Part shown: piece by piece, positions 21,889-63,588 of the stretch
How positions within the stretch are numbered: position 1 is the stretch's first letter
Layout of the letters: every line of letters begins with the position of its first letter
Assembly (NCBI GenBank): GCA_008632985.1
Contig: QPGO01000145.1
Coordinates: 124,001 to 188,000, forward strand
Direction of reading: 5' to 3'
DNA: 64,000 nt
From: Psammoneis japonica
Lineage: Eukaryota
Notes under the pieces: model-generated
What the model saw: only the letters and a program-made list of their open reading frames with translations
Databases searched by the model: none
Told to the model about the DNA's origin: nothing
Position numbers and translations under genes: made by a program

Positions 21889-22086
21889 GGTCGGAAGGCA
21901 AATTCGGCTTTTTGATGGGTCGGAACGTCAGCGGAATTGTCTTTCTTGAAATTTCCTATAAACATTTTCGAATATAAAAATATATAGCAAACTTCATGGG
22001 GCAATTGTCAAACAGCTGATTTTGAATTACTTATGGAACGTCTGTCCCCCGTTCATATGATGGTCTGTCCTTCTTCATAATCAATA

Positions 22087-26799: not shown

Positions 26800-28906
26800 A
26801 TGACTACCGAAGCAAATGATATTCCCTTTTATCTCATGCCCGTGGCGGCCGTCTTTGGCATGTACACGATTGTCGGTTCCATTCGGGCTGTATACTTGCT
26901 GTACGCCAATCTCAAAACAAAAGAGGGAGACATTCCTCCGGCGACGTCGTTGAAATCCAAGGCATATTCTCTACTGGTAATTTCAGTGCTACTCTCTGCC
27001 GTGGCATACGCCAAGGTGGTGGCCATGGTAGAAAACGCCGTGGCCGAATCGGATCATGCTCTGTTTGACCCGTACGACATTTTGAAATTGCCCGACAGCA
27101 CCACCAACACGACCGTCATTAAACAAGCCTACCGAGAGCTTTCGAAAAAGCACCATCCCGACAAGGGCGGAAGTGAAGCGGTGTTTCATAAAATCAATCT
27201 CGCCTATCGTGCCCTGACGGACGATAAAGAAAATTGGCAACGCTACGGACATCCCGATGGACCCGTGCAGACGCATTCGCTCACCTTTGCCCTGCCCGAA
27301 TGGCTGCTCCATCCCGAGGGCAAGACGGCGGCGATTTTGCTCGTGTTGTATTTGGGCATGTTTGTGGGATTAATTTATTGGGTCATCCGATATGCCACGA
27401 CTCAAGAGCAAAAGGCTACCAAATTGGAAATGGACAATTCGGTGGCGGGAGCCGATTTGGCCTATTTGGCATCGAATCTGTCGCCCGATAGCAGTCCCTT
27501 TGATATCTTGTGTTTGATTGCCACGACTCCGGAAAACATGGAACGCACACAGCAAAGTCTCGACAAGGCGGAGCAATTGAAAAAGGAAAAATTACAAAAG
27601 CGTTCGACCCAAAAAGATGAATTTGATTTGGGCGGTGGATGGGCCGATGATGACGAAGAAGAAGATACGGCAGCCGCAGAAGCCAAGATGGCCAAGGAAC
27701 GGGCCGAGCGGATTGCCAATGCCACGGGAACCAAGGAAGTATTGATGGAGGGTGTTGACGAAGGTGTCTTGGGACAACAATGGGTTCAAAATGCACTGGC
27801 AAAAAAGCAACAGTGGCCACCCAAACATATCGACGTGCTAAAGGGCAGAACCTACAAGACCAAGGACGGCAAGGTGGTGGATGCCATGGAGCACCCAGCT
27901 ATTCGACGAAACTTGTGCATGACCATGGGACGGCTCAATGCTCCCTATCTCAATACTCACCCCGAATTATGTGAGTGCATCTTGCGCGCGTGTGCGACTG
28001 TGTAAGTCGTCGTGGTGCCCGCAATTCTCACTCTTTACACTCACCTTTCTCTCTTTTATAGTGGAAGCTGGTTCCAAGAAATTGGTGGATGGCACGTACT
28101 TTTCGTCCACAATTGAATACCGCAACCGCGTTGGTATGCTCTTGGAGGCATCGTTACGGATTGCCATGCAAACCAAATCCTATCGTCTCGCCAAGACCAT
28201 TATCGAAACGGTCGTCATGTTCAAGATTGGAACCGTGTCGGTGCACAACAAGAATGTCATTAAGGAATTTCAACAAGGCATGATGAAAAAGTACGGCGGG
28301 GAGGATGGTGTCCCAAAGCTAAGTGTTAACTCGTGCCGTGTCTACACACCCGATGAGGAGGAGATTGCGACGGAGGATACGTGTGCGCTTGAGATTGATA
28401 TGGAACGTTTGCACGCGGAGAACTTTACCAAGCAAAAGGTTCAAATGTGTCAAGAACAAGGCATTCCTGTTCAAGTTGCACTCAAGAGTTATCGAGAGGG
28501 ATGGTGGATTTTGGTACGAGCGAAACGCACGGATGGAAAAGAAAAGGTGCACGATGAAGAAGATGAGGATTTGCCAGACAACAATAGTCTCTTGGCACAA
28601 GCCCTCCGAGACGGTGTCCGTGAGCGTTTTTCGGGTGAAACGGGTGAGAACCGTCTGGTCACGGCGTGGCCCTTGATTGTGCAGAATGTGTCACAAAAGG
28701 GTGGTAAACTCAATGTGCGGTTTCGAGCACCATCCGAACCCGGCAAGTACCGTTACTTTGTAGCCATCAAGAGTCAAGAATTCTTGGGAGCCGACCAGGA
28801 ACACACGGTGGACGCGGTTGTGGTGGATGCCGCCAGTATTACTCGGGTCGAGGACGAAGTGAGTGACGGGGAAGAAGAAGGAGACGAAGGAAAGAAAGAA
28901 AAGTAA
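26800..28906 (+). CDS. SEC63: Sec63-like ER translocon J-domain protein, 2 exons (intron 27971-28061)
   Basis: TM segments, J-domain FDPYDIL...YRELSKKHHPDKGG, NWQRYGHPDGP, FALPEWL, C-terminal YREGWW...FRAP..PGKY...SQEFLGADQ and an acidic tail. Confidence 0.88.
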
Positions 28907-37513: not shown

Positions 37514-38640
37514 TCCAGAGCAGCTGGAGCTGCTCTCTGTGGGTGTCTGGTCCACCGGGTTTTTTCCTCAATTGAGGCAGCAAAATTGTCCTCAATTGAG
37601 GCAGGTGAAATGCACGGCAGACAGAAAACAACATGCCATTTTGGCAAATGACACGAGAGATGACGATGTCAATTCCATTGTGCAAAGCAGTCTCCACAAT
37701 GACAACGAAGCTGTTTTAATGCTCGTCACACTGCACTTTACATGTGCAATGTGCTTGCCTGCACCAAATTTGAATCCTGATGTCCACAAATTAGCCACAA
37801 ATGTGGGATGCGAAAATGGCCCATCACATTCATAAAAACACTTTTGACACACTTTCAGCCACCGCATCGTCTCACATTCAACACATGTCAATGCACCACA
37901 TGCTTGTCATTGTTGATTGTTGTGTTTTGGTGACACAAATTGACACAAAGATTGTTGATCTTGGTTGTTTGTTGTGACAGCAATTCTGATGCTGCAATCG
38001 CAAACAATGCTTGTTGAAAGCTCATCTGCACACAACAGCGCACTTCTCTTCATTGCAGAGAAGACATCCTGCTGCACACGCAGCACACATTTGCCATCGT
38101 TGCAGACCCAAATTTTTGAGGTGCCATTTTTTTGCGTTTTGCACTTGATCCCTCCTTTTTTCGACTGTCACTTCAATTTTGAGACTCGGGTCACCATTTC
38201 ATGGGAACTTTCTCGTAGATTCTACGACACAAATGGGCGACAGACAGACAAATGTGACAGAAGAGTCCATTTCCATCATCCCCGTGCTTTTTGTGCAGCA
38301 TGCGATGCTGACAATGGCGTGCCGCCGGTGACGCCATTGACTGATTTTTGTGAGATGAAATGCATTGGATGTGTCTTGTGGCGAGCGACAAGCACAGATG
38401 TGCGCCCATGTTGACTCTGGATGCAGTTTGTGGTTGATTTCAGTGCATCATTGTCAATGGCTTTTTTTGCAATTTTCTGCGTGAATTACGTGCAGCAACA
38501 ATGCAGGATGTTGATGACAATGGCATCATCTCAAATGATCGATTAGAGCTGTCAGACAGACACCAGTGAGCCAAATGTTGCATCAGCTGCACTTGTCATG
38601 TTCATGTTGTCACTGCAGCATGCCTGGAACCAGTGTGGAT

Positions 38641-39029
38641 GACGCGTTCCAGCCCCAGGTGGGACTCCCTGTGACATTGGGCCCACAGAATTCCACATGC
38701 GAGCTCCGCAGTGCGAGAATTTAATTGATGGATGTGGTCATCTTCAACATCAAATGAATGGCCAAGTTTGTGGTGCAATTGTGCCTCTTGCCACTCAACG
38801 TTTTTGCAAATGCACCTGCCCCAAGCGATTCTTGGGACATTGTAGAATTGCGCTGCAACAAAAAATGTCAAAAGTTTTTGGACAGATCACTCAACAAGTG
38901 CACCGCAAAATGACACAAAATGTCAAAAAATCAAGTGGAACTCCACGTGCACGACACACAACGAGATTCAAAAAACTGTCGATGTCACAGTTCAGTGGTG
39001 CGAGGTCCCACCTGGACCTGGAACGAGTC
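38641..39029 (+). mobile_element. MITE, hypermutated copy
   Basis: TIRs GACGCGTTCCAG / CTGGAACGAGTC, flanks GGAT / GGAC; colinear with 44834-45222. Confidence 0.9.
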
Positions 39030-44649: not shown

Positions 44650-46150
44650 TCAATTCTGCTTAACACGCCGTCCAGCATGGCGTCGCCTCTTCCCGAGCCT
44701 CCGCCGCCAACACCCATTGGGACAAATGGCGAGAGTTCTGCTCCTCTTTGGCCATCGACCCACTCCTCGAAGACATTGACGACCCCGTTGTCTTCCTCCA
44801 AGTCTTCCTGCACCGCCACCGCACAGGAGTCCTGACGCGTTCCAGCCCTAGGTGGGACTCCGTGTGACATTTGGCCCGTAGAATTCTACGTGCGAGCTCC
44901 GTAGTACGAGAATTTAATCAATGGATGTGTCCATCTTCAACATCAAATAAACGGCCAAGTTTGTGGTGCAATTATGCCTCTTACCACTCGACGTTTTTGC
45001 AAATGCACCTGCCCTGCGCGATTTTTAAGACATTGTGGAATCGCGCTGTAACAAAAAATGTCAAAAGTTTTTGGACGGATCGCTCAACAAGTGCACCGTA
45101 AAATGACACAAAATGTCAAAAAATCACGTAGAATTCTACGTGCGCGACATGCGACGAGATTCAAAAAACCATCGATGTCACAGTTCAGTAGTGCGAGGTC
45201 CCACCTAGACCTGGAACGCGTCTCCTCGCGCCGATGGGCAATCCCATCCGTGGAAGAACTGCTGAAGATGCCACACGTTCGGTTGGCCAAACATTCGCTG
45301 CAATGGGGGCCCCGGATCCACGCCACACATCCCAAGGCACAATGGATTTCCGTCTTGCCCGGCAAGTCTGTTTTTACAAGAAGCAGGATCCACCCCCAGA
45401 CCGCACAAAACCTGCCCCAATTGCAGCGCTGCAATGGATTATGACAGCCGCAGCCCTCAGCAATGACCCGGGCACACAAGCTGTTGCTGACATGATTGTA
45501 ATCGCCTTTTTCTTTTTGTTGCGGCCTGGCGAGTGCACCGCAACACCATCCGATGCCACCCCCTTTCGTCTCGCCGATGTCCAGCTTGCGTCCGGTGGTG
45601 CTTGTCTTGTTGCCATGCAAGTTCCACTTGCTCACCTTGACACAGTGACCTTCGCTGCTCTCACATTCACCACCCAGAAAAATGGAGTGCGAGGCGAAGT
45701 TCCAGGGCTCGGTCTTTCCGGTCACCCTCACCTGTGCCCGGTTCAAGCCCTCATCCGCCGTGTCCAACACTTGCGCACCCATGGTGTGCTCCCTGACACA
45801 CCCCTTGGTGTTTGCTTTCAAAACAACACCTGGTGTCGTGTGTCCCTGGCCGACATCACCAGCATGCTTCGCAATGCTGTCACTGCTCTCGGTCCGGCTA
45901 ATCTCGGCTTCATCACCCGAGACATCACCGCTCGGTGTCTTCGTGCCGCTGGGGCAATGGCCCTCCTTTGTGCCCGCGTTGACACCGATCTCATTCAGCT
46001 CTCAGGCCGCTGGCGATCCGACGAAATGTTGCGATGCCTGCATTTGCAAGCAGAACCAGTCATGCGCAACTTCGCTCATGACATGCTCGCCGGTGGCGAC
46101 TTCGTCCTGCACCCCAATGCTGACGTCCCTCAGAATCCTTCAAGACGCCT
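44650..46150 (+). pseudogene. Ngaro tyrosine recombinase, interrupted by a MITE and with catalytic Tyr->Cys
   Basis: Removing 44834-45226 joins HWDKWREFC...HRTGVL to APMGNPIRGRTAED. Also FFFLLRPGEC, TQKNG, LCPV, GRWRSDEMLRCLH (TGC 46035-46037 where Tyr is expected). Confidence 0.88.
44834..45222 (+). mobile_element. MITE, young unmutated copy, 4-bp TSD
   Basis: TIRs GACGCGTTCCAG.CCTAGGTGGGAC / GTCCCACCTAG.CCTGGAACGCGTC; TSD TCCT (44830-44833, 45223-45226). Retains many TA. Confidence 0.93.
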
Positions 46151-46796
46151 GATCACCACAGCCCTCCAGCCTCAACCCACCCACCCTCCCAAGAGTGCAT
46201 GGCACTGTGGGTGGCACTGGAAGGCCCTGCCGTTCCAGCTTGGGTTTTTGGGAATGAGGCTTGCGCATCCGCCAGTGAAGCCATTCCAGTCCATCACTGG
46301 AAGATCTCTAGATGGCGCTAGAGAGCCGCAGGAGAAGGAACAAGACGGGCGGTGTGAGCCGCCCACCTTGTGCAGTGCGACGAGGCAAATGACCCGTTTT
46401 TGACCGTTGGGTCATGCAAGCCGTTTGAATTCAAATTTGAACGTGCTTGCGCGAGCTTGGCAAGCAAACAACGGTTTTTGCTCTTTTTCTCTTGCTTGTT
46501 TCACTCATTCTTCCAAAGAGCAACAAAGAGCAAGAAGCCGCTAGACAGTTTTTAATGCTCCCACCTCTCCCGCCCTCTGGCCCTGCCGGTCCAGCTTGGG
46601 TTTTTGGGAATGAGGCTTGCGCGTCCGCCAGCAAAGCCATTCCAGTCCATCACTGGAAGATCTCTAGATGGCACTGGAGAGCCGCAGGAGAAGGATTGTG
46701 CCGGGCACCGGGCATGATGTTGCAACTTACAACTGCATCGCCAATCCAAATCCTGAAGCCCCTGCTGCGACAAGCACCACACCTTACAACACCACC

Positions 46797-48079
46797 ATGA
46801 GCGAATGAAAGAACAAGTGACTGGACGTTGCTGCAGCTGCTGCTGAGAGTCAAGCCAGAAAGAAGCAAAAGACACCCCGAGACGCAAACAGCGCGAGCAA
46901 GGAAAAGATTCTCTGCAGTGTTTGTGCTGCCAAAAAGAGCGACTTTTTGAAAGGCCAATGCAAATGGGCAAGCAAGGGCGAGAACGCCATGTGTCACGGT
47001 TGTTGGAATCAAGAGCAAGAGGCCAAACGGGCCGAGAGAGAAGCCAAGAGAAAGGCCACAGAGGCCGAGCAGAACGCGAAAAAAGATGCGCCACTGTCTC
47101 GACCCAGAAAATGCAGTGGCTGTGGCCTTGCGAAAGCAAAAGAAGAGTTTTCTGCCTTTCAATGGGCTGGCAGAGAAGACAGCATCTCTTTCAAATGGCA
47201 TCACGACGACTGCGGCTGGATTTCCTTGTCGGAAGATGTGTTTGAACGCATTGAGCAAGGCGAGGCTTGCGGAAAGTGCCTTGAGCGCCATCCTAAAGTA
47301 GAAGAAGATCGTCACAGAGCAGAGAAGGCAAGACTTGAGGAAATTCAAAGAAGGGAGTGTAAGTGGCAGAGCTTGAGAATGTGCAGATGCTCCAAGTCTT
47401 TTGAATTTCCAGAAGACTTGTGCCATTTTCAGCCCACCTGCCTGCATCTGACACTCTTGTTGGAGAGCATGATGTGATTTATCATCATGGCTTTTTGGGT
47501 GGTAAAGGCAGAGTGCAAAGTGCGGTTGATGCAACATTGACTCTCACTCACAATGAGGAGAAATTGAGTGGATGCGTTGTGTTTGCCAACGAAGATGCAG
47601 ATGAAGGATGGGACTGACCGAACTTTAACTTTGAAGAAAGCTCCAGAGCCAATGACGGAATTGGTTTCAACATCGTCAAGTTCCCGGCAGATTGGGAAAC
47701 CGAACATGGAGCGGAAGGATGCACTCAGGTGTTGGACAAGTGCATTGCGTGCCGATGGATTCTCGAGGAAAACACATTGGCAGGTGATGACGATGACGAG
47801 AGGTGCAATGGCTTCATTCCGAGATTCAACAGTGCCGAAGAAGCGGATGCCCACTTGCAGCGGCAACTGCCGGAAAACTCGTGGATGATTGGACACTTGG
47901 GACTTGACCCGGGTCTTGTTTCCTCAGTGAATGAACATGCGAGACCCTGGACACCAAGCCCTCCTGTCTTTTTCTTTGAAGAAGGCGACCTGTGGACAGA
48001 TGTGGCATGGTGTGACCACGGAGAGAATTGTTTCTCTTTTTTCATTGCTCGACGACGAACCACGAATGAATGTCATTAG
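46797..48079 (+). pseudogene. Hypermutated inverted duplicate of the 29558-31117 zinc-finger gene
   Basis: CGA->TGA stops at codons 4 and 8. Tyr losses: GEYDV->GEHDV, TEYG->TEHG, AYLQ->AHLQ, NEYARP->NEHARP, WY->WC. Fewer CxxC repeats. Confidence 0.93.
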
Positions 48080-48305
48080 ACAGCCGACTTTTGGCAATGA
48101 CGTCACTTTCTGGGCTGGTGCTTTCTCTAAAGCGTAAAATTTTGAGGTCTGAGAACAATGTAAGAAAGAATGTAGAGACAAAACAAAAGCATTGTGTCCA
48201 CATTAAACATGCAATGAAGGAAAGCATTTGAGCGAATGCTCCATTGCACAATGCCTTTTCTCTGTTCCTGGATGTGCCTGAAATTGTCATCGGCAGGTTG
48301 CAGGG

Positions 48306-51300
48306 TGACAGGGATCCCACATGCCCTTTTTACATTGGAACCTCATGACCGAAGACAACATGTCTTCAGCCCAGTTCATGATTGAAATTTGCCGATCTTT
48401 CAGAGTGTTTCATCAACCTGTCAGAATCCATCCGACATGGACATCATGTCGATTCTGAGACTGGCTCAGAATCTCTCACAACTTCTAGACAACGCATTGT
48501 CGCAAGGTGCTGCTCCTAGATTTAGCTTTTGGCTCACTCTCTCCTGTTTGTGCATGGACTTGATTCCCAAGACACTCTCAGGCGAGCACCCAGTTCTTTC
48601 CCATCTTCTGTCATGGTTGCAACTCTTCCGGTTTGGTCCAACACGACCGCTTCTTTTAAGCCGAGTGCTGGTTGCGCGTCTCGCAATGCTTCCTCTCGCA
48701 AGCCGTCTTCGCACGCACTTTCTTCGCAAGAAGTTTTCACGGTCCACGGGCGCTCCGTCGATGACATCCCCATAGCCGACCCTCGTGACCGTTGTCACAA
48801 TGTTGATGCTGGATCTGTTGTCCAGCATGCTGGCATGTACACCGCACATCGTCGTCACACTCGTCGCGTGACCCAGGGCGTGCACCACACCCCGACCCGT
48901 CGCATCAAGTGCGCATCTGCACCAATGTCCAAGCCGCCTCCCAAGCCCTTGCAGCAGGCCCCCAGGCGCAACAAGGTCTCAACCCATTGTTCTCAACGTG
49001 CCATCAACCGCATGCTCACTGCCTCTGCCGACCCTGTGGATTTGAGCGCCGTGTTGGCTCATCTGTCTGTGGCCTTTGCAACGGCAAAACCGTCAATTTG
49101 CCCAGGGCCACTTCCGGTGCTTCACAGCCAACTCGCAAGCGTGCCAAGACTGCTCGCCGTCATGCCCAGCGTGCTCTCCATCGCTCCATTGCTTCGGCAA
49201 AATGCACTCCGGCTCCTGCTCTGCCCACACCTGATGAGCTCTGTCTCTCTCGTGTCAAAGCCAACGTCCGCATTGCTCTCAGCGAACGCCTTGCTCAGGC
49301 CCAGGCCCGCGTCGATCGTCTCCAACTGGAGACTGACAAGATCCACTCCAACTTCCGTGTCATGAAGCACTCCCGTGCTCGACTCGACAATTTGTTGGAA
49401 CAAGCCGCCCTTGGTGAATCCGATCTTTTTGACCCCGAGCACAATCTCTGTGACCGCGCGATCCGCAACCAATTGATGGAAGTCAATGACTCTTTGGACA
49501 TTCTGGATGTAGATTTGGACACTTTGCACAACCGCGTTCGGAAACCTTCCGCACCTGATGACCCTGAACCTTCTGCTCACTTTTCCAGGCCGTGACCCCG
49601 TCGACGTCGTGCCAAATCCCAGTTGAGACAATCACTCAAGATGATGCCCAACCAGGAACGCCGCGCCTTGCACTCCCACCGTCGCCGCCATGGCATGTCT
49701 CGATCCGAACCCTTTCACCATCCTGACGCCGATTCATGTTTTCAGCCCGACGCAAGAAAATGTCAAGACAGTGGCCCTCCGCAGTCTCCGCACCCCTCGT
49801 CAGATCAATTCATCTGTGCAACTGTTGAAACCGTCCGTTCTGACCAAGATGATGTTCCGGTTCAAGGGGGGTCTCAACCTGCTGCTGATGACTCGCCACC
49901 CAATGTTGCTGCACCCCTGGGGTCCCCAGAGGCATTCCCTCCACTTTCATCTCCAACGGATCGTGCCACCCCTGCACTCTCACATGTCAACCCATCCTCT
50001 TCAACATCTGCGCCTCACCTTTTTGATGTTGTTGCTCCCATGTTGCACGAAATGGACAAAGCTCTGACAAGGCCCTTGCCTCTCCCTCTCGTGCAAATTC
50101 TGTTGGCTCGTCTGCTCCCCCTGAGTCACACACCTCTGATGCTCCCGATCTCTCCGTGGACGATGACACAACATCAAGTTCGCCTCGCAACCTTCGATGC
50201 TCTTTTTGATGCCCAGCAAGCTCTCGCACCATTTTTCCATCGCAAGAATGAAAATGCCGTTGCGCTTCGCGACACCATTGACTCAACCAAAAACTGTCTT
50301 TTGAGTGCCTCCTTTGCCGTCATCCGGCTTGTGAAGCCAGCAACCTTGCACTTCGTCATTTTCAGGATGTGATGTGCGACGCCGAGTCCCTTTGTCTGGA
50401 ACTCATGTTCCGTCTTGCTCTCACGCCGCGACGACATCCCGCGTCCCCGTCTGACCATCCCTCATCAGCTGACGGCACTGTCTTCCATCATGGTGCGACC
50501 GAGCGCTCCTCGGAATCCTTGTCAAATTCTCTGATGAAGCACGCGTCCCATGCAAACTTGAGCACTCTGAAACACCATCAGAACCACACACGCGATGACA
50601 CAAATTTTGCGCATTTTTGAATGACTTGCGCGGGACCTTTGCATCTTTTCTGGAATTCAATGGCATTCTCAATGACTTTCCTTCTGTCCCTCTTCGCCCA
50701 CTTCCAGACCATGCTGACAGCGCTCTTTGTGCTCTCCTCTGGATGCATGTGGATGCAACGCACCAATCTGACATCTCCGACCTTGCACCCCGCTCTGGCA
50801 AACTTGCTCTCGAGGAACTCCAATTGCGGTGCATGCCCATCACCCAGGAGCACAGCAATTGCTGTTCCAACAACTGCCTGCAGGTCTTCCGCAACTCCGA
50901 CGAGTCCGCAAGCAGCTTCATCCAACACTTTGAGCGAAAACTCTGAAACCACAAAAACGCCGGCCTCCCGGTCAAGACTGATGTGGAAATTAGCACCCCA
51001 TTTTCTCAGCCAAATGGGCAGCCATCCTCGATGCGATGCATCGATCAAGCAATTCGAACCCGAATTCTGCACTGCCGCCATCTCTCCATTGCCTCCGCTC
51101 CTCACTTCAAGGACATCCGGCAAACTTTTTATGACATTGACGAGCAGCATCACAACCAGCAGCATCGTGACCGTCTTTCAAATGGCTCTCGCTCCCGCTC
51201 TCACAACAACCACGCTCATCTTGCTTCCGCCAAACGCAATCCTTGGAATGCTCCTCGACAGCAACGCCAACAACGTTGCCCACCCCTGCCTGGCGCAACC

Positions 51301-54300
51301 GAGATCTGCGACCACTGTGGAAAGTGCAACCACAATGCGCCAAGTGTTGTTCTTGCCTCTGCGATTTGAAGAATGGCGCGCCCAAGGAAAACCCTGCTGC
51401 CAAGCCTCCTCACGACCTGAGCAAAATCACCTGTTTTCACTGCAAGAAAAAGGGTCACCTTCATCCAGATTGTCCCGAGCTTGCAAAGGACGCAAAACAA
51501 ACCGCTCTTGCGGCCACTGCACCCACCATGCATTGCCAAGCAACGGCACCTCCACCAAACGGCCAAATCATTTTCTGTGTCACTCACACTGACATGGAGG
51601 ACACTCACTCTTTTGTCTCCTCCTCCTCAGACTCCACCCCGCCTCTGGAATCATGCCACATTTCCTTCGACGACGATTCCTCGGCCGACTCCTCCAACAG
51701 TGACACCATTGCATCCTCATTGACTCATGGAACAATGCCAACATTGTCCCTCCAGGACCTTCTTGCTGACACTGATTCGACTCATGGCAACAACATCTCA
51801 TCCGCCAGCTTGGCCTCCTCTGGTCCGCCGCCTCTTGCATTTCATGACCGAGACTCCAGCACGGAATCTTCACTCACTGTGCCGTCTTTGCTTGTCACTC
51901 AAGCACACCCGACAACACCACGGCCTCCACTTTTGGTGCACCGCCTCCCGGGCACTCTGCTGCGGCACCCCCTTTCTGCTTTGACTGCCACGACACTTTC
52001 ACCATGGAATCTTTTGCCACCAGGCCCACTGCAGTCTCTGATGATGACAACGACTCCGTCATCTCTGACATCAGCTTCGACCTCATGGATGCAGCCGACA
52101 CTGCCCCCTGTCACCCATGCAACACCTCTGCTGATCACGTTCAAATTGCATGCATGGCCGATGATCCCAGTCAATGCCAACCTCAACAAATGCCCCGCGA
52201 CACTGACCTCACCGACATCTGCAGTTGGTTTGTTGACTCTGGTGCTTCATCTCACTTCGTCCGTCATGACTCACTCGACAACAGTGCCCCCTGCCACGTT
52301 CCTGTTGTGATTGCCGACGGCACCACAGTCCATGCCACGACAGTCGGATCCGTCACTTTGCACTTTCAGGATGACCAAGGACACCCGGTCAACCTTGTCC
52401 TTGATCGTGTTCATCACATCCCGGGGCTCAATCGGAGCTTGTTCTTGGCACCCTCCTTCACGGCCAATGAACTCTTCAACATCCGAATCACCACCAACAT
52501 CACGACGCTCGATTTTGGCAATGGGCACACTTTCAGTTTCCCGACACTCCGTCACAAGCGCTCCTGTCACAATGCCACCACTGACACAGCACCGACATCC
52601 ACTGCTGACCCCATTTTGATGGAAACAACCGACACCCAGAGCTCCTTGAAACCGATGACTCTTGCAATCGACCTTGACCTTGCAGGCCGCCGTTTCAGTT
52701 GTCGCTCCTCTCAGAGTCTTTTGGCAGGCACAGTTGGCAAAGTTTGGTGCGACTGCCACATTGCCCCCAGGACTGACAACTGTCTGGACAATGCGCGCAT
52801 CACCATCTCACGAAAGCTCAACCGCGCCAAGTGTGACCCGACTGAACCCACACACACATTTTCACGTGTGTTCATGGATGTAATTCCCAACCCTCGCACA
52901 GTCGCACTCACCCCAAAAACGTCTTTTCCCTGCCATCTCTTTTTGGCAACTCACAAAGGACACTGCTGCAGTGTTCGTGGTCTCGAGAGTCCATCATCTG
53001 GCAATGTCATCACCGCATTTAAATCATGGATGACCGACGCACAATCCCAGGGACAAGTCCAAGACATGAACTTCATCCGCGCTGACTCCGCGCAACATTT
53101 CCTGTCCTCCGAATTTCTCGCCTTTGGGGAAGACAATGGCATCAAGGTCGAGGTCGCCGCTCCACGACACCAGGAACAAAATGGAGTCGCTGAACACATG
53201 TGGCAGGTTGTCAGCAACATGATCCGCTGTCTGCTTGTCAACGCACGGCTCTCGGCACACTTCTACCATCATGCATTTGTTCATGCCGTCGCCATCCTGA
53301 ATGTCCTCCCAGCTAAAGGCACACGGCTGCCTGATGGCTCTTCAGCTACGCCGCACTTCCACGCATTCAACAAACTCCCCAAGATTGGCAACTTCCGTGT
53401 TTTTGGATGCCCCGTCACTTTTGACAGATGCCAACCCCTCAACCCAGAAACTCGTCGCCCGACCACCACCCAACAACAGATTCAATGTCGATCTTGATGC
53501 ATCCACATCGGTTTTGCACCAAACCAAGCTGGGTGCCTCATTCATGTTCCCGAGGGCATCGGCACCAAGAATCTGATTGTTGTGTGCGACGCTGTTTTCG
53601 ACGAACTATTTGATTCGTCTCTCGTTCATGACCACGTCCCTTTCTCTGGTGCCCTCCCGATCTGGAACATCTCCAACAATGCCTCTGGTCTCAAGACACA
53701 CAACAAGACCCCAGCAGATGAACATGCGGGCACCATTCAAGATTTCTTTGATGTTGACTCACCCCCTCCTTCCTCCACTCTCGCCAAAGCGCCTCCGGAC
53801 TCCGACAAATCCGATTCGGACCCACCGTCTCCTGCACCTGCTGCAACCGGCCTCAGACGAGCTGCTCGCATCAACGCCGGCCACCGCACATCCATGCGCT
53901 TCGCAGATGAAGAGCAGCTGTGTGCCATCTCCTCCACTCCCCCAGTCGACCTCCTCGAGCAAACTCTCTTCGATGACTCGCCAGCCATGGAATCTGTGCA
54001 CAGTGCCTTGATCGAATCTCCTTGGCCTGACCACAACTGGCATCAATGCCCGGATCCTTTGCAACAAGCTTTGGAAGCCGTCAAGGCCACCACTTCAACC
54101 CCCATTGATGACTGCTCACCCGTTCCTCGCTCTTTTCGAGCCATCCTCAGACAACCTCCCGCGATTCACGATGCCTGGCTGCGTGCTGTCCGATCCGAGC
54201 TCAAGAACCTCACAGTGGACAATGAAACCTTTGCTCTTCACGAATGTCCCCGTCCAGACGATGAGATCATCGGCACCACCCTTGCTCTCCGTGCCAAAGA

Positions 54301-56177
54301 GAAATCCGACGGCTCTCTGGAGAAACTCAAGGCTCGATGCTGCGCGCGCGGCGACGTGCAACGCAAATCAGCCGATGACGACAATTGGTCTCCAAATGCA
54401 TCCTCTCGTGCCATCAAGCTCTTTCTAGCCTTTGCTGCGAAGGCCAAACGACACGTCAAGAATGGTGACTTTGTCGGTGCTTACCTTCAGGCCCCAGCTC
54501 AAGGCCGTCTCTTTGTCCGCTTCAACCCAATTCTGAAGCAACACTTTCCCGAGCATGCCGAACATTTTGGTGTGCCCCTCCGCCTCAAGAAGGGCATGTG
54601 CAGGACCATCCGCAGCAGTCTTTGGTGGTCCACCGAGCTCTCCGAATTTTGCTTGCCAAGGATGCACCAATTCCAAGGCAGACCCCACCTTCTTCGCCAA
54701 GCACTTCCCTGACGGCTCACATGTCAAGCTCATCTTCTGCACGGACGACATCATCTGTTTTGGGTCTCACGATGGAGTCGAGAAGGATTTTGAGAACCTC
54801 GTACGATCCAGGCACAACATTGCATTCAACGGTGACGTCACCTGGTTCTTGCAAATGTGCATTCACCGATGCGCCGATGGCTCCTTCTCTCTCGACCAAC
54901 ATCGATGCATGCGCAATCTCCTCAAGCGGTTTCTCACTCCCAACTCACCTTGGGGCAGCCCCAGCTTTCAGGATGCTCCAGCTCTCGTTGATTGTGTGCA
55001 CTCCAAGTTGAATCAACCCAAGGATGCCGTCAAATCCAAGCAAATTGCAAACAAGTGTCCCGGACTCCATTTTCGCTCCGCTGTCTGCTCCATCCTCTAT
55101 CTCGCTTGCAACACTCGCGCTGACATGCTTTGGATCACCTGCAAACTTGCAAAGGCTTGCACCAACCCCGGCATGAAAGATTTCGATGCTCTCATTCATC
55201 TTTTTGGCCACCTCCACAAACATCAAGACCTTGCCATCAAATTTTGTTCCGGTCCCACCATGAGCCCTGTTCACGCGATTTGCAAAGCTCACAATGTCAG
55301 TCATTCTGAATTTGTGGTCTTCACTGATGCCAGCTGGCAAGACTGTCCGGACACCGCTAAGTCAACTGTTGGATTTATGGTCCACTTCAATGGGGCAACA
55401 GTGGAAGCCAATTCCACTGTCCCAACTCCTGTGGCAATGTCCGCCGCCAAATCCAAGTGGATGGGTGCCTGCACTGGTGCTGTGGCTGTCACTCACCTGC
55501 GCATGTTGGCACACGACTTCACCTTCCTTGGCACCCGCCACTGCTCCATTGACTCCCAACGCCTCTCCACTGCTCCCACCATCCTCATGTTGGACAACCA
55601 AGCAGCAGCCCAAATGGCCCAAAATGACCAACAGACTTGACGAACCTGACACATCGAGTGACGTTTCCAATGTGTCCATGAAGGCCAGTGCCTTGGTCAT
55701 CACTTGCTTGTTTGGGTCCCTGCTGAAAGTCAATTGGCGGACTGCCTCACCAAAACTCAATGTGCAGACAAAATTTGGGTCATGGTCGACCGTGTCCCAT
55801 GGCGTCTCCCTGCACACATGTTGTCATGAGCTTCTTGTCATCTTCCCTCATTCGGTTCAAGGGGGGTGACAGGGATCCCACATGCCCTTTTTATGTTGGA
55901 ACCTCATGACCAAAGACAACACATCTTCAGTCCAGTTTGTGATTGAAATTTGCCGATCTTTCGGAGTGCTTCATCAACCTGTCAGAATCTGTCTGATCTG
56001 GACATCATGTCAATTCTGAGACTGGCTCAGAATCTCTCACACAACTTCTGGACAACGCATTGTCGCAAGGTGCTGCTCCTGGATTTAGCTTCTAGCTTGC
56101 TCTCTCCTGTTTGTGCACAGACTTGATCACCCAAGACACTCTCAGGCGAGTGCCCAGTTCTTTCCCATCTTCTGTCA
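48306..56177 (+). mobile_element. Full-length Ty1/Copia LTR retrotransposon (CoDi-like), hypermutated
   Basis: LTRs 48306-48613 and 55867-56177 (TGACAG...CTGTCA); TSD CAGGG; PPT AAGGGGGG. Gag knuckle CFHCKKKGHLHPDC, protease WFVDSGASSH, integrase IRADSA..EQNGVAE, RT ARCCARGD / DFVGAYLQ / IFCTDD, RNase H FTDASW, in PR-INT-RT-RH order. Confidence 0.95.
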
Positions 56178-56650
56178 CAGGGGCACACGTGTGGACACTT
56201 TGAACTTGAGAGGAAGTTCGCATTGATGTGACAGGTGCCAGGATTGGAACCACATGAACAACTCTTTCGAGCTGTTGCAACAAATCCAATGCTGACTCTT
56301 CCTGAATTGCCAGCACCGAAACGGTGAAAGAAGAAATCACTCTCAAAAGGCGGGTCGTTGAAACATTGTTCGTGCAGCCCCCAAAAACAATTCGAAAGCA
56401 TGTAAAAATTTGTGGCACTTTTGCAAGCATCAGAGCAAGAAGAAGCACCAAGTCTTGCACAATGAAACTAAAGAAATTGCTTCACTTTCTTTCCTTTGCC
56501 GTCTTCTTCCCCGTCTCTCACTTCGTCCTTGACCCGAGCAATGCTGGCAGCATCCACCACAACCATGCCCACTGTGTGTTCATGGTCAGCTCCCAAGAAT
56601 TCCTGACTCTTGATGGCTGTGGCAATGGCACTTGCCGGGTTCGGATGGTG
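56178..56650 (-). pseudogene. Inverted duplicate of the Sec63 3' end and downstream intergenic DNA
   Basis: The minus strand reads AIKSQEFLGADHEHTVGMVVVDAASIARVKDEVRDGEE versus the intact AIKSQEFLGADQEHTVDAVVVDAASITRVEDEVSDGEE. It resumes for ~23 bp at 61694-61716 after the Gypsy. Confidence 0.9.
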
Positions 56651-59600
56651 TGCAGCATGCCTCGCTGCTGGACAACACGGCGAGACCGTGCATGAGCCTC
56701 TTGTGCGTGGCAACGCAGTGTTGTCAACACACACCTGGGAAGCACGACCACAGGAGGGTGTGGCTCCAGGTCTTGGGCAATTCCAGAAGGATGCTAAGAG
56801 AGCATCCGTGTGAAGCACACCAGCCCGTCGTCTGGCCCACGATGGCAGCGTGATTCCACACGATGACATCACTCGTGCACAGCGCGTGATGGCTTGATTC
56901 GCACGATCCACAATGCGAAGGCACAATCGATTTGATGCGATCCAAATGCGAACAAATGGGGATTTGGCAAGATTCCCCATTTGCACGATCCCACTTTCTC
57001 CACTCCAAACTGGCTCACAATTTTCACAACGACAAAGTCGCAACACATCTTCTTTTTCAGCGCCTGGCACATGCATGGGGCACAGCGACATTGCTCCCGC
57101 ATGTTGTGCGAGGTGACGAAATCTGCAGAAACGAAACTGCGAAATGTTGGTGGGACCGACAAATCTTAAAACGACCATGAAGAAGCGGATTGAGCCACCG
57201 ATTCCGTTCGCACGGCCGGAGAAGAAAGAGCTGCAGCAAGGCGAGTGCCAGACGTTCAAGCTGCGCAACAACCCTGCCAATCCGGATGGTCCAACGCACG
57301 AGATGGGCATTCCGCACCTTTCTGCGGCTGCATGCGAGACACTCCCAATCTTTCTGCACAACGTGGATCGCGTGCATGAAGGACAAAACATCACGGCTGG
57401 GCCAGCGAAATTTGCCCTCATGCGTGACCCACTGCAGGGCGATGCTCTGACGTCATTTGACAGTGCCGCTGACAAGCAGGCATCTCAAACCAACGCCACG
57501 TGCACAGCATGCGTCGCGAAGCTAAAGGAAAGCATCTTCCCACACAGGGCGGTGCCATTGCAGAAGCATTGTCTGAGGCGCTTCACGCGCAAGCCCGCAG
57601 AGGTTTCCACTCGTGACTGCATCGCGAGGGCTGTTGAAATTAACGGCTGTGTCTCTCAGTTTCCACCCATGACGGAGGATGGAGAAGCACCGGCACCATC
57701 ACCCAATGACGAACCATGCGACATGTTCGAGCACAGTGTGCCAAACGCATGGCAGAAGTTCATGACGCCACAGAATTTTGACCCGTTGGCGCACACTGTC
57801 GCCGAATTTGCACAGTTCTGCGAGCGCATCGAGCAGGTCGAGCTTGCTGAAGGTAACCTGGACCAACACACTAAGGTCCCACGCAAGCGGGGACGTAGAA
57901 CGGACAATCCTGAGTCGTTGATCACGACCCAACGGAACACCCAGAAGTCGTGCATGCTGCACGGGACCAACTGTGGACATCATGCGGAGGATTGCCGTCA
58001 GCTCAAGCACCACGCAAAACGTGTCAAGACTGGACATTCCAATGACGGAGGGCAGCAAACCTGATGCAAAACCTCGGAATGAGGAAGACATTGACACTCT
58101 CATCGGATCGAAGGTCGAGGAGTTCTTTGCCAACGCTCAGAAAAAACGCAAGGCACGCGAGGAGGAGCTCAATCACTTCCGCGACCTCAACTTAAGTGAT
58201 TCCGAAGATTCGGACACCTGAGAAGGGGGGCCGACACGACACAGGCACTTTTAACACATCAGATGAATGTATAAATGAACAACTGAATTACCATCGTACA
58301 CGTGTTGTAGGCCAATCCCGCAAACGAGTTAAAAAGACTCATCTTACTCCAATCTTGTTTATAGCTATGAATGCTAAACATGGCAAGGGCAAGACTCAAA
58401 CCATTAAGGCACTACTAGATAGTGGCGCCAGCAGCACTCTACTCGACAGTCGATACTGTAAACGTCTGCGAAGCCATTCAACGGCTGAGACAAACTGGAC
58501 TACGGTAGCAGGCTCGTTCAGTACGTCTAACGACTGTACCGTTAAATTTCGGTTACCAGAATTATCCGAAACGGAAACCGACCGGATTTCGCGTATTTTA
58601 GACGCTAAGTACGCGCCGGCCTGCCTCGAGGACATAACGCGAGGGGCAATAGAATTTTCTATTGTTCAACAAAACGACCTTTTGGCACTATAGAAACGCC
58701 ATGAGTCCTTATTTGATGGGACATTAGGAGAATGGAAGGGAGAACCCTACCATATCCAACTCAAGGAGGGTGTAGAACCATACCACGCTCGTCCGTATAA
58801 AGTACCTCGTGCGTACGAAGCTACGCTACGTAAAGAAGTAGAACGCCTAGTGCGCATTGGTGTTCTCAAACGCGTTAACCGATCCCAATGGGCAGCTCCA
58901 TCATTTATCACACCGAAGAAAGATTTAACGGTGCGCTTTATTAATGATTTGAGAGAGCTGAATAAACGGATCAAGCGATTGCCTTGTCCGATTCCTGATG
59001 TCCAAGACATGCTGCTTGAGCTCGAAGGCTTTATGTGGGCTGCATCGCTGGATTTAAATGCAGGCTGTCATCACATCCGATTGGATGCTGACAGTGAGAA
59101 GCTTTGCACGCTCATCTTCCCGTGGGGCAAGCATGAGATGCAGGCATTGCCCATGGGATTGTGCAACTCGCCAGACATTTTCCAAGAACGCATGTCAGGC
59201 TCATTTGAAGATCCATGGTTCGTTCGAACGCACTTAGATGACCTTCTCGTCGTGACGAAAGGCACCCATGAAGATCACCTCAACAAACTTGAAGAAGCTT
59301 TGTTGAGGGTCCAGAAAGCAGGACTAAAAGTTGACGCAACTAAATCTCACTTCTGTCAAACCCAACCAGAGTGCTTGGGCTGTCTGGTCAACAGAGACGG
59401 AACGCGACCAACACCTGACAAAGTGGACGCCATTGAGCGAGTCGCGACCCCAGCCAACAAACGCGACCTGCGCTCATTTGTTGGCATGGCGAATTGCTGC
59501 CGTGATGCGTGGATCAGACATTCTGAAGTCTTGGCTTCGCCAACACGACTCGCAAGCAAGACTGTCAAGTGGGAGTGGACGTCCATTGAAGACGAGGCGC

Positions 59601-61693
59601 TCGAAACCGTTGAACGGGTGACATCGGATGATGTTTTGTCGTCACATCCTGATTTTGACAAACCCTTTGAGACACATGCCGATGCCTCTAAATGTCAATT
59701 GGGAGCAGTTGCACCCCAAAATGATGAACCTGTCACCTTTTGCAGCAGAAAGCTCAACAGCGCGCAATTAAATTGTGCAACAACGGAGAGAGAATTGCTC
59801 GTCATTGTGGAAATGTTGAAAGAATTTCGAATGATTCTCCTTGGTCATCGCATGATTGTGTGTGCTGATCATAAAAATCTTGCATGCAATGCGGCCCCGA
59901 ATTACGCTGTGTTGAGGGCACCCACAACCCAGTCGCTGACGCTCTTGGTCGCCTTCGACTGGCACCCAGCTTGCCTTCCGAGGCCAATCCGGATGTAAAC
60001 GACACACCATCGAGTCATCCTTTGCATGAAGCTTTTAATGCAGACGCGCAAGATGAGATGTCTCTGCCCATTAGCTTCAAGCGCATTCAAAAAGCACAAC
60101 AAAAGGACAAGCGCCTACTCTCACGAGCTAAGGACTCGTCCGACTACTCCATTCGCGCGTGTCGTGGGGGAGGGTCATCACGACAGTTAATCTGTCATAA
60201 GGACAAAATCGCAGTACCACAGTCATTGCAGGTTCCGCTAACTGAATGGTGCCACGAGACACTGTGTCATCCAGGTGAGACACGTACGGAAATATCTATT
60301 GCCCAGCACTTCTATTGGCCTAGTATGAGGTCTACGGTGCATTCTACGTGCGTTAAGTGCGATCGATGCCAGAAGACAAAACGCCGAACGCAGCGTTATG
60401 GGAAGCTACCAGAAAAGGTCGCAGAGATAATTCCATGGGAGACTCTATGCATAGATATGATGGGGCCATATAAAATTCAAAGACGCGGAAAGGACACTTT
60501 GCAATTATGGGCAGTCACAATGATTGACCCAGCAACCGGGTGGTTCGAGATTAAAGAAGTGTCTACGAAACGCGCAGACGTCGTAGCAAACGTCGTGGAA
60601 CAAACGTGGCTATGCAGACATCCGTGGCCAACCCAGGTGGGTTTATGACCGTGGGACAGAATTTATGGCAGAATTTAGCCAGATGATTAAAAATGACTAT
60701 GGGATTTTGAAGAAACCCCTAAGTAAACGGAATCCACAGGCGAATGCCATAGTGGAACGTGTACACCAGACACTTGGTAACATGGTACGTTCCTTTTCAG
60801 TACAGAATATGGAACTGGACGAAGATGACCCATGGAGTGGCATCCTCTCCGCAGTAGCCTTCGCTATTAGAGCTACGGTACATACGACCACGCGTGCAAG
60901 TCCCATGCAATTGGTCTTCGGACGCGATGCGGTTTTTATCTATTGCCTATCGTGCTAAGTGGAAGTACATGGAAACCAGAAAGCAGAAGCTTATCCACTT
61001 TTAAACAACCAGCGTGAAAATCAGAAATGCAAGAAGTGTCAATATACCGTAGGGCAATTGGTACTTATCAAACAGGAACAATCCTCTAAATACGGTTCTG
61101 ACAGCTATGCAGGACCCGCCAGAGTTGTCTGTGTATATGACAACGGCACGTTGCGTGTCCAGAACGGAGCGCTGATAGATACGTACAATCTACGGCAGAT
61201 TGTACCCTATCACCAGTAAGACATCCTGTCACTTTTAACGGCCCTGATCATGGGGGAGTGTGCAGTATGCCTCGCTACTGGACAACACGGCGAGACCGTG
61301 CATAAGCCTCTTGTACGTGGCAACGTAGTATTGTTAACACGTACCTGGGAAGCACGACCACAGGAGGGCGTGGCTCCAGGTCTTAGGCAATTCCAGAAGG
61401 ATTTCAAGAGAGCATCCGTGTGAAGCACACTAGCCCGTCGTCTGGCCCACGATGGTAGCGTGATTCCACACGATGACATCACTCGTGCATGGCGCGTGAT
61501 GGCTTGATTCGCACGATCCACAATGCGAACGCACGATCGATTTGATGCGATCCAAATGCGAACGAGTGGGGATTTGGCAAGATTCCCCATTCGCACGATC
61601 CCACTTTCTCTGCTCTAAACTAGCTCACAATTTTCACAACGACAAAGTCGCAACACATCTTCTTTTTCAGCGCCTGGTGCATGCATGGGGGCA
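56651..61693 (+). mobile_element. Ty3/Gypsy LTR retrotransposon, partly hypermutated, with internal deletions
   Basis: LTRs 56651-57082 and 61261-61693 (TG...CA); TSD GGTG; PPT GGGGGAG. Gag 57177-58220 (CMLHGTNCGHHAEDC), protease LLDSGAS, RT WAAPSF..PKK / DLRELNK / LPMGL, RNase H DAS..LGAV, integrase H..LCHPG..CDRC / CIDMMGP / NPQANAIVERVH. Confidence 0.95.
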
Positions 61694-61716
61694 GGTGCTC
61701 AAAACTGCACATTGAG

Positions 61717-63200
61717 ACAACCTTCTTCTTGGCATGACCCCATGTGCTCATGAGCTGTGGCTTGCATTTGTTGTTTCCTGCATGCATTTGGCAAGAAGCT
61801 CCATGTGGCACCCTGGGGCCTCCTTTGTGTGCTTTTGGCATGACTTGATCCTTTTGTGCAGGTGCAGCACTGCAGTGAGATTTTCACAAGAACTTGACAG
61901 CAGTCTTTTGATCAACAAAGAGTCTGTGCTGCCTCACAAGACTGTTGTCACAGCTGTCCCCACCAACTGCTTTTCGGCACATGTGGCTTTTGTTGTCACA
62001 CCACCAGTGCACACCACATGCAAATGTGGGAGGGCACTCATTGTCCTTGAGTGCCTTGGCAAGTTTGGCTTTGCGGCGCTGTTGACTTTTTTTCTCTTGC
62101 TTGAGCATTTGCAAAACACAAGCGCAAATCACACGTTTTGCCTGTGCGCTGCCTTTGTCCTTGCTGCCAGTCCAGTGATGAGGAAGGGCCAGTAGATTCT
62201 CTTGGGCATTTCTTGCTGTTTTCATGGTCTCCCTCTTGTTTGAAGGTGCAGGAGCAAAAACAATGGCAGCAGCTGGGTTCTGCCAAAAGAAAGAGTTGAA
62301 ATTGGGTCAGCTGATGAGTTGCACCACATGAAACTCATGTTGTCATTTTGACCACAATGAGAGCAATCAGAAAACAAGCAGTTTGAAGCAAGGTTTGCAT
62401 GTGACAGGATTGGCCCTCCACAAGCAGCAACAATGTTGTCAACTTGCAACTCAGTTCAACTTGTGGTCAAGAATCTCCTCTCAGCATCATCCAAAGTGAG
62501 CGACAGTCATGTGTTGCAATTGCAGAGCTTGCGCCACATCAAGGTTAATTGGGCTGTGAGAACTTGTCCCTGCATGTGTCCAGCACCTGCTCTGTGTGGC
62601 AGCTTGCACTCTCTGACATGCTTGCAAACCCCCTTGGCTGTGTGTGAGTGGAGTTGCAGAAGGAGCGCCCATCTGTGCAAGGTTTCTAGCTGCACCTTTT
62701 TTCTTCTGCTGTGTTCTCACTGTCAGTTGCTGCCAGCACCAGCCTGACCAAGTCTGTTCCCTCTGTCTGTTTGGTGGGCCATGCTCTTCAATCAGGCTGA
62801 TGCTGGTGGTGACAACAGATGAGTGGCCCAGTGGAGAAAGTTCATAGAGTCATCAGACAGATGGGAAAAGTGGCTGAGTTCTCCTTTGCCAATCCCACAA
62901 ATGACTGGGGGGAGAGTGACTGCTGGGCTTGTGGGACATGAAGCTGACTCTGAAGTTGCCAAACTCTGAAGTCTTTGACTGCTTTCAAAAACATCCAAGT
63001 GTGCTCTTGTCACATCTGAATCTTGGTGCAGAGGGGAGCCATTCTCCTTTTTTTGTGCACTTGCCAGAGAGCATTGCACTTCATGCTGGCTGTTCAAGTC
63101 CAAAGGCTGCTGCTCCTTCTTCTTCATTGTGGCAAAACAAGAAGTGTCACTCACAGTTTTTCCTTGTCTGTGCAACACCGCAAGTGAGACCACATGCCCC
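61717..63200. repeat. Unclassified TpA-depleted repeat/TE relic
   Basis: Near-absence of TA up to a sharp boundary at ~63.2 kb. No domain recognised. Confidence 0.45.
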
Positions 63201-63588
63201 ATCTGCATGATCCTTGAACGGCTGCACTTCTTGATGGGAGATTTCTAGGACATCGCCCGTAGGGTGTAGTAGGATGGTCCCCAAGGACACTCTACCGGAA
63301 ACGGCATCCGGAACACGGATGAAAATTATGGTAAATGCGCTAATGCGGTGGATTTCATGGTCATTGACATGGCGGCTGCCACCACTCCCATTATTTTTAC
63401 CATGAAACTGTGTCCCACTGCTTGCTTGGGAGGAAAAAGGTACAATATTGCTATAGTTGCCAGTTATTAAACGCTTGGTTCTTACAATGCTGCCACTAAC
63501 CACCTTTCTGAAGCGTGGACGACAAACGCACTGTAGTGCTTGTGTCTCTACCTTGCCTCTCTCTTGTAGTCTATGTCTGCGATACTGT

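Follow-up and report, generated by a model that had tools for sequence, protein, structure and literature searches.

A Ty3/Gypsy element in a window poor in TpA

The stretch of DNA analyzed here, positions 124,001 to 188,000 of contig QPGO01000145.1 of Psammoneis japonica (64,000 bp; hereafter the window), carries at positions 56651-61693 a Ty3/Gypsy retrotransposon in which blocks nearly stripped of the dinucleotide TpA (TA in the counts below) adjoin blocks of ordinary TA content. The window as a whole is poor in this dinucleotide, with observed-to-expected (O/E) ratios of 0.27 for TA, 1.49 for TG, 1.39 for CA, and 0.73 for CG; two of its 1-kb bins contain no TA at all and six more contain a single one. 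A fucoxanthin-chlorophyll-type light-harvesting (FCP) gene lies at 19.7-20.5 kb, its best solved relatives being the LHC/FCP proteins of diatoms and other ochrophytes, and the window is nuclear DNA of a photosynthetic stramenopile.

The element begins with TG at 56651 and ends with CA at 61693, and is bounded by a pair of long terminal repeats (LTRs) recognized as a 433-bp direct repeat of 93% identity (56648-57080 versus 61258-61690). Site-by-site comparison places the 5′ LTR (TG...CA) at 56651-57082 and the 3′ LTR at 61261-61693, both on the forward strand; the former is fully TA stripped, with 1 TA and 26 CG, and the latter is spared in its first part and partly stripped in its last, with 13 TA and 32 CG. 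Outside this pair lie the two copies of a GGTG target-site duplication, the left at 56647-56650 and the right at 61694-61697 (both forward strand), which are defined by the printed junction sequence and by a contig joint in a public run, X1, considered further below. Along the element the Pfam matches follow the order Asp_protease_2 (a weak match, below the cut-off), RVT_1, RT_RNaseH_2, and Integrase_H2C2. The TG...CA LTR pair, the target duplication, and the order protease, reverse transcriptase (RT), RNase H, integrase together identify a Ty3/Gypsy element. Its gag-like open reading frame (ORF), at 57117-58064, has no Pfam match. For the coding region, two protein searches (973 and 811 proteins scored at E <= 0.001) together list 240 homologs with these domains; as no copy of the same family is among them, the best identity being 63%, ancestral states are read from conserved alignment columns.

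Blocks of stripped and spared TA

We segmented the window with a two-state hidden Markov model (HMM) over every TA, TG, or CA site, which was given no prior borders and was blind to the element. Around and within the element it returned a stripped segment at 45212-58188, a normal one at 58193-58963, a stripped one at 58972-59994, a normal one at 59996-61456, and a stripped one at 61461-63235. Together with the TA counts and the domain matches, these segments define five blocks, to which no strand is assigned. Stripped block 1 (56651-58192), which takes in the 5′ LTR and the gag-like ORF and is continuous with older stripped DNA to its left, keeps 7 TA in 1,542 bp (O/E 0.09), with O/E values of 1.57 for TG, 1.46 for CA, and 0.95 for CpG. 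Spared block 1 (58193-58963), covering the protease (the weak Asp_protease_2 match) and the N-terminal part of RT, has 57 TA in 771 bp (O/E 1.03). Stripped block 2 (58964-59995), with the RT core (RVT_1), RNase H (RT_RNaseH_2), and the start of the integrase, has 12 TA in 1,137 bp (O/E 0.17) when measured over 58964-60100. Spared block 2 (59996-61456) holds the integrase (Integrase_H2C2) and the first 196 bp of the 3′ LTR; TA makes up 87 of its 303 TA/TG/CA sites. Stripped block 3 (61457-61693), the end of the 3′ LTR, has 2 TA in 237 bp and is continuous with the older stripped right flank as far as 63235, the whole HMM segment 61461-63235 having a CpG O/E of 0.27.

In sum, the stripped blocks contain 21 TA in 2,916 bp (O/E 0.09-0.17, with TG and CA at 1.3-1.6) versus 142 TA in 2,127 bp in the spared blocks (O/E 0.95-1.03), so that, relative to the spared density, the former have lost about 89% of their expected TA (21 remain of ~195). 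Per 100 bp there are 0-3 TA at 56.0-58.2 kb, 0-2 at 59.0-60.1 kb, and 0-2 at 61.4-63.0 kb, against 5-10 at 58.2-59.0 kb and 4-8 at 60.1-61.4 kb. A preliminary description of this locus had reported such a mosaic and ascribed it to clustered events rather than to slow uniform drift. The mosaic is real, and a random distribution of converted sites is not what we find: TA and non-TA labels fall into 237 runs, fewer than in any of 10,000 shuffles (273 +/- 8.6; minimum, 240), and a five-segment model improves on a uniform one by 2*deltaLL = 172, its borders having been picked post hoc. The limits given earlier needed correction, the first stripped block starting not with gag but at 56651 with the whole 5′ LTR, and the second spared patch starting near 59996 instead of 60.1 kb. 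The peptides quoted as TA stripped (PCPIP, GCHHIRL, GKHE, THLDD, ECLGCL, NCCRD, SHPDF, SKCQLG, FCSRKL, NCATTERE, and VCADH) all occur in the translation, as does EPYHARPYKVPRAYE from the first spared patch, and the TA-rich HFYWP, RYGKLP, and GPYKI lie in the ORF at 59875-60648.

Three of the four borders can be placed to about 50 bp. The first lies between the final TA of spared block 1, at 58963, and the earliest inferred conversion, at 59000; the second between a conversion inferred at 59947, the last before the border, and the TA at 59996; and the third between a TA at 61456 and a conversion at 61490. The left border of spared block 1 lies somewhere in 57896-58270. On the stripped side, TA escaped at 59032, 59872, and 59903.

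Stripped block 2 has a frameshift near 59881-59893. Spared block 1 is interrupted by an in-frame TAG at 58691 (Leu in 76 of 79 homologs), and spared block 2 has a 1-nt frameshift near 60639 (60637-60641), shared by about 62% of the family depth there, and a TAA at 60956; an intact active element would not carry these three lesions, and neither spared patch is a copy of one. We also considered whether they could be nested younger insertions. This was ruled out, as the protease and the integrase that they encode belong to one pol and the frame runs across 58963/58964.

Direction of change

The preliminary description had fixed the direction of change as TA to TG or CA from conserved Tyr positions, and in this it is borne out by three comparisons that agree, namely, the LTR pair, the conserved Tyr columns, and a duplicated host segment. 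The two LTRs differ at 29 mismatched positions, of which 19 are of the TA type, 5 of the CpG type, and 5 of other types. At 13 of the TA-type mismatches the 3′ LTR has TA and the 5′ LTR either CA (7) or TG (6). The other six make up three sites at which one LTR reads CA and the other TG, for which the ancestral state was TA, since nothing else explains both by single steps. The CpG-type mismatches all have CG in the 3′ LTR and TG or CA in the 5′ LTR, and what remains is one 3-nt cluster, one transversion, and one other transition.

In the protein comparison we used 25 columns with Tyr in at least 70% of 80 full-length homologs. None of the 14 that fall in stripped DNA keeps its Tyr (9 are Cys, 4 His, and 1 Trp) versus 9 of the 11 in spared DNA (3/3 in block 1 and 6/8 in block 2, the two lost being Cys at 60250 and His at 60619). 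As a control, 120 homologs from other sources have at most 4 Cys or His at 23 conserved Tyr columns, and 85 of them have none. Both gag and RT/RNase H had been described as stripped, and both are: for RT/RNase H this is seen in composition and in the Tyr columns, and for gag, which lacks usable homologs, in composition.

The third comparison sets the host segment at 28.7-31.2 kb against its inverted duplicate in the transposon island. TA is lost in the duplicate at 55 of 64 host TA sites (42 read TG or CA and 9 keep TA), and the reverse state occurs at 1 of 13, although the intactness of the host copy could also reflect selection on the host gene. The changes in the LTR pair and in this comparison are almost all A:T->G:C at TpA. 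The segment, 28728-31200, spans the end of a DnaJ/Sec63-like ORF together with the greater part of a 527-aa one; its inverted duplicate, at 46708-48255 and 56193-56650, is split by a copia-like element and is TA stripped with about half of its CpG lost, the original being intact. The gene-bearing stretches at 12.7-16.9 and 19.6-30.3 kb are likewise mostly normal by the HMM, with short stripped segments at 14426-14726 and 26159-26405, and the transposon blocks are stripped; host genes are spared.

Timing of the stripping and the empty site

Of three public runs listed, all of a single sample, X1 alone matches part of the window (0.45 of the sampled words), and no RNA run that contains it was listed. 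One of its contigs joins 56646 to 61694 with four shared letters and a single GGTG, that is, the empty site, at a depth of 51.4 where the single-copy flanks are at ~51. The empty site and the GGTG pair identify a true insertion, with a target duplication of 4 bp, and one that another haplotype or strain of the species lacks; since X1 has the empty site, the insertion is young and polymorphic. The flanks of the empty site differ from the window by ~1-1.3%, and across 56133-56646 and 61715-62815 the differences between the two haplotypes are mostly at CpG and TA sites. In the right flank, the window and the X1 haplotype have CA versus TG at 62419/20 and 62600/01, and in the left flank they have TG versus TA at 56412; these are indirect signs that the process is still running.

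The LTRs, identical at insertion, date the stripping at the two ends of the element. All 16 datable TA sites are converted in the 5′ LTR versus 3 of 16 in the 3′ LTR (Fisher P = 3e-6), and within the 3′ LTR none of 11 sites up to 61456 is converted versus 3 of 5 beyond (Fisher P = 0.018), one further, ambiguous site sitting in the 3-nt cluster. Identical 433-bp sequences 4.6 kb apart were therefore treated differently after insertion, and because the LTRs differ at TA sites, whatever made the blocks acted after integration, at least for the two LTR-containing ones, both of which are continuous with older stripped flanks. Outside the TA and CpG types the LTRs differ by 3 events in 433 bp; near saturation was thus reached at an ordinary divergence well below 1%. 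The earlier claim of a recent process holds on all these counts: the LTRs differ mainly at TA sites, the insertion is missing from X1, and the haplotypes differ as CA versus TG.

These findings bear directly on the possibility that the element was edited before it integrated, either by an ADAR-like enzyme on its RNA or by a deaminase on its cDNA, with the blocks arising from template switching or from differences in the time spent single stranded. Retroviral hypermutation is regional, and the stripped copy keeps its ORFs, the loss of TA removing TAA and TAG. Nevertheless, the LTRs differ at 16 TA sites, so the changes followed integration; both strands were hit; and DNA that is no retroelement is equally stripped (the host duplicate, a 390-bp repeat, and the flanks of both haplotypes). 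We reject editing before integration on the LTR differences and regard it as highly improbable.

Strands and sequence context

The 16 conversions in the 5′ LTR comprise 10 CA and 6 TG in 9 runs versus 8.5 expected (P = 0.71). In the RT/RNase H block, 32 protein-inferred conversions comprise 23 TG and 9 CA, an excess of TG that is partly a detection bias, third-position T->C being silent; they form 9 runs versus 13.9 +/- 2.2 (P = 0.027), a weak clustering that includes runs of 5 CA at 59069-59231 and 14 TG at 59678-59947. The Tyr codons of this block taken alone give 9 TG and 4 CA in 5 runs (P = 0.24). All three conversions in the 3′ LTR are TG. As TG and CA are interleaved, each block was hit on both strands, with local strand clustering that is at most weak.

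The sharp tracts had earlier been taken to suggest processive events, and one such event per block, on exposed single-stranded DNA or by long-patch repair, would indeed account for all-or-none blocks with sharp borders; the weak clustering in the RT/RNase H block and the uniformly TG conversions of the 3′ LTR also fit. However, a lineage descending from one exposed strand would carry TG only or CA only, so that the interleaving within each block, complete in the 5′ LTR, argues against a one-strand event, and the processive proposal in its simplest form is not supported. A burst could still yield a mixture of TG and CA if the T opposite inosine were excised before replication. We consider a single processive event per block distinctly improbable.

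The TA sites that survive in the stripped blocks have a characteristic context. With Y for pyrimidine and R for purine, 15 of the 21 are YTAR and none is RTAY, versus 32 and 38 of 142, respectively, in the spared blocks (P = 2e-5 and 4e-3). Since survivors are enriched in YTAR and depleted in RTAY, the A is hit much faster before a pyrimidine (TAY). The spared blocks are not short of these fast contexts, and they hence look unexposed rather than lightly exposed. TadA edits a UAC loop, and the preference for TAY would match this.

What sets the blocks

The preferred explanation, which we advance tentatively and with slightly less than even confidence, is a TpA-specific, TAY-preferring A:T->G:C mutator aimed at domains smaller than the element. 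Such a mutator, acting at the DNA level, would turn TpA into TpG or CpA, fastest at TAY, and would act on the silenced mobile DNA of this stramenopile alga while sparing host genes. The Gypsy copy would have inserted recently into an already stripped transposon island, after which three domains (the 5′ LTR with gag, RT/RNase H, and the end of the 3′ LTR) would have been driven near saturation on both strands, two others (the protease, and the integrase with U3) never being exposed. The blocks would then be the footprint of the mutator's aiming, by chromatin state, small RNA, or homology, and the chemistry may be adenine deamination by a TadA/ADAT-like enzyme.

An origin of the blocks in differences of copy number between parts of the element was considered as well. 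Summed over X1 contigs, depth across the element is 8.4k-38k versus ~51 in the flanks (160-750x), with means of ~13.6k and ~18.4k in the spared blocks and ~16.9k and ~11.6k in the stripped ones, summed contig depths not being copy numbers. The notion that the blocks are repeated versus unique parts of the element was ruled out on these data, as spared depth is no lower than stripped depth. Over 57140-61402, X1 also contains many rearranged family copies at roughly single-copy depth, e.g., ones skipping 58341-59741, 59177-59738, or 60564-60958; the rearrangement joints coincide with no block border.

Background change is alike in the two kinds of block. At columns conserved in at least 90% of homologs (178 in stripped and 165 in spared DNA), differences that are neither TA nor CpG type number 10 and 6, respectively (P = 0.45), and TA-type differences number 26 and 4 (P = 4e-5). 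CpG-type changes number 9 in stripped versus 1 in spared DNA (binomial P = 0.02), a count that blends two kinds of evidence, namely, 5 in the 5′ LTR versus 0 in the 3′ LTR and 4 in RT/RNase H versus 1 in the two spared coding blocks. This coincident CpG decay fits a shared epigenetic state. Letters found in the window only, and in no X1 family contig, occur in blocks of both types (58248 and 60806 in spared, 59217 and 60006 in stripped DNA); they come from 40 of 372 variant places, and the count is anecdotal. The window reads CA or TG at 59214 and 59333, two places where TA is found in all family contigs of X1.

The main competitor, which the preliminary description had itself named as an alternative, is ectopic gene conversion, under which the element was fully stripped and 58193-58963 and 59996-61456 were then overwritten from unmutated siblings, restoring TA and CpG together. 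The tracts required, 0.77 and 1.46 kb with borders of 50 bp or less, fit; donors are plentiful, given the depth of the family and the 1,024 of 5,373 aligned X1 contigs that are at least 99% alike; and stripped ends beside unique flanks are to be expected if homology is needed on both sides. Restoration of both dinucleotides at once would further account for the limitation of CpG decay to the stripped blocks, and the frameshift near 60639 in spared block 2 is one common to much of the family. On the other hand, the spared U3 differs from the 5′ LTR by one event outside the TA and CpG types (the 3-nt cluster) versus two in the unconverted R-U5; without excess divergence there, any donor must have been nearly identical. 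Each of the supposed tracts contains a window-only letter (58248 and 60806, respectively), and full stripping followed by two conversions would have to fit within ~0.7% LTR divergence. We judge conversion rather unlikely.

Another possibility, likewise named in the preliminary description, is that assembly or polishing blended stripped and unstripped copies or haplotypes into a consensus whose mosaic exists in no single molecule. The family is abundant in both states, the window differing from it by A>G at 101 places, T>C at 91, C>T at 77, and G>A at 62, and the internal borders have no confirming read or contig, X1 carrying the empty site. Nonetheless, the junctions are clean, the 4-bp target duplication agrees with the empty site, the reading frame is unbroken across 58963/58964, and window-only letters of the kind that polishing toward the family would erase are present in both block types. 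A chimera of this kind seems to us quite unlikely.

Aimed, recurrent mutation is preferred here because it accounts for the unequal conversion of the two LTRs, for saturation of TG and CA alike, for CpG decay in the same blocks, and for letters unique to the window in spared DNA. The intact host segment at 28.7-31.2 kb and its stripped duplicate also speak for targeting by domain, and changes of this type, at TpA only, arise de novo in silent single-copy viral inserts of Bigelowiella natans (Mettrop et al., bioRxiv 10.64898/2026.01.13.699255). Several points weigh against it, including the blended CpG count and the small number of window-only letters mentioned above. Borders of 50 bp or less and blocks of 0.8-1.5 kb equally resemble gene conversion tracts, and a high-copy family means abundant donors. 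The LTR dating does not reach the internal RT/RNase H block, whose origin in situ we infer, as we do the chromatin mark, the small RNA or other guide, and the enzyme. The mosaic rests on the assembly, the only run found (X1) being without the insertion. Finally, the spared blocks contain TA-type changes at conserved columns (58910, 60211, 60250, 60460, and 60619), which may predate the insertion.

Stripped and spared DNA elsewhere in the window

Sharp domains on the kilobase scale also exist outside the Gypsy element, as a 2.6-kb stripped block at 16937-19554 (7 TA among 515 sites; CpG O/E 0.53) lies between two apparently intact genes. Two paralogous ORFs on the reverse strand, 16164-17177 and 21073-21927, share ~67% DNA identity and have normal TA. 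Part of the 527-aa host ORF, 30351-31079, is called stripped (9 TA among 118 sites); this is the internally repeated part of the ORF, and the low TA may reflect composition or real leakage into a repeated coding stretch.

The copia-like element at 48303-56177, nested in the host-segment duplicate, has LTRs at 48303-48613 and 55864-56177 that are 91% identical. It is fully stripped (~1 TA/kb at 49-53 kb), and its LTRs have CA versus TG at 7 dinucleotide alignment positions. The 390-bp repeat exists in two states, at 38640-39029 and 44833-45222. At 44.8 kb the repeat still has 16 TA and stands as a normal island of 358 bp within a stripped block; the copy at 38.6 kb has TG (8) or CA (7) at 15 of those sites and has lost 9 CpG to TG or CA. 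A further TA-normal island of 565 bp (7213-7777) lies inside a stripped block, in diverged tandem repeats (6710-8225).

Parallels with known mutational systems

Mutational processes that attack mobile DNA offer several parallels. The kataegis, APOBEC, and ADAR types of hypermutation produce deaminase-type transitions with a fixed neighboring base in kilobase-scale, strand-coordinated clusters. In the element described here, by contrast, the strands are interleaved and the blocks saturated, and the one-strand pattern of such clusters is not what is found. Ectopic conversion among dispersed retrotransposons can leave a sharp, kilobase-scale, two-state mosaic in one element; it would explain the mosaic only and not the TA-specific changes.

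Repeat-induced point mutation (RIP), known from Neurospora and other ascomycetes, is likewise a dinucleotide-tied transition hypermutation that kills mobile elements, acts regionally, and can be caught part-way. However, the transitions of RIP are C:G to T:A, chiefly at CpA, with TpA as their product (PMC2621366), a chemistry that is the exact reverse of the direction found here; in the element, stop codons are destroyed rather than created. Under RIP, neither copy of a duplication escapes mutation, whereas the host copy in this window is intact, with the caveat that it was perhaps kept so by selection. As regards dependence on repeats, the Gypsy family is high copy along its whole length.

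The closest parallel comes from mutation-accumulation lines of Bigelowiella natans, in which, as reported in the main text of a preprint, two integrated viral regions gained 231 mutations, of which 230 were A->G or T->C, all at TpA (Mettrop et al., bioRxiv 10.64898/2026.01.13.699255). One of the two regions is single copy and silent, the rate in some lines is ~1e-7 to 1e-6 per site per generation, clusters of 1-kb windows poor in TpA and rich in CpA and TpG occur genome-wide, and an ADAT2-like adenine deaminase is proposed as the candidate enzyme (bioRxiv 10.64898/2026.01.13.699255). The likeness to the present case lies in A->G/T->C changes at TpA, in their confinement to foreign or mobile DNA, and in TpA depletion with a gain of CpA and TpG. 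The differences are that B. natans is a rhizarian and the organism here a stramenopile, and that the targets reported there, viral inserts of 25-186 kb, are single copy and only partly depleted (rho TpA 0.45), whereas the target here is a high-copy LTR retrotransposon with near-saturated blocks of ~1 kb beside untouched ones. The main text of that preprint has no diatoms, tract borders, strand runs, or flanking-base rule (bioRxiv 10.64898/2026.01.13.699255).

In print, our literature searches gave only this 2026 preprint for targeted A:T->G:C hypermutation of invading DNA, and full-text searches found no description of a TpA-erasing mutation in diatoms. One report that at first appeared relevant (PMC9258296) was set aside, because "hypermutation" in its accessible part refers to antibodies only. 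Diatoms have RID-like DNMT4 genes, whose function is given as unknown in the accessible part of the report concerned, which describes no mutational process (PMC9998398).

Implications for the biology of the element and its host

The element amounts to a dated natural experiment, as its LTR pair was identical at insertion, its insertion is polymorphic, and saturated and untouched blocks adjoin within it. The borders indicate that the targeting, or its reversal, works at a resolution finer than the element, and 58193, 58963, 59996, and 61456 are four coordinates for comparing methylation, histone marks, small RNAs, and single-molecule reads. The TAY flank rule also reduces the range of candidate enzymes. 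As TAA and TAG are lost to the process, long open frames persist in dead transposons, a point of importance for gene prediction in such genomes. A more specific and, in our estimation, doubtful possibility is that the borders of 50 bp or less and the all-or-none blocks of ~1 kb are the footprint of a sequence-specific guide, with small RNA or homologous pairing recruiting a DNA adenine deaminase. If that were true, diatoms would possess a natural form of guided "adenine base editor" that defends the genome and can be caught as it takes over a new transposon copy bit by bit.

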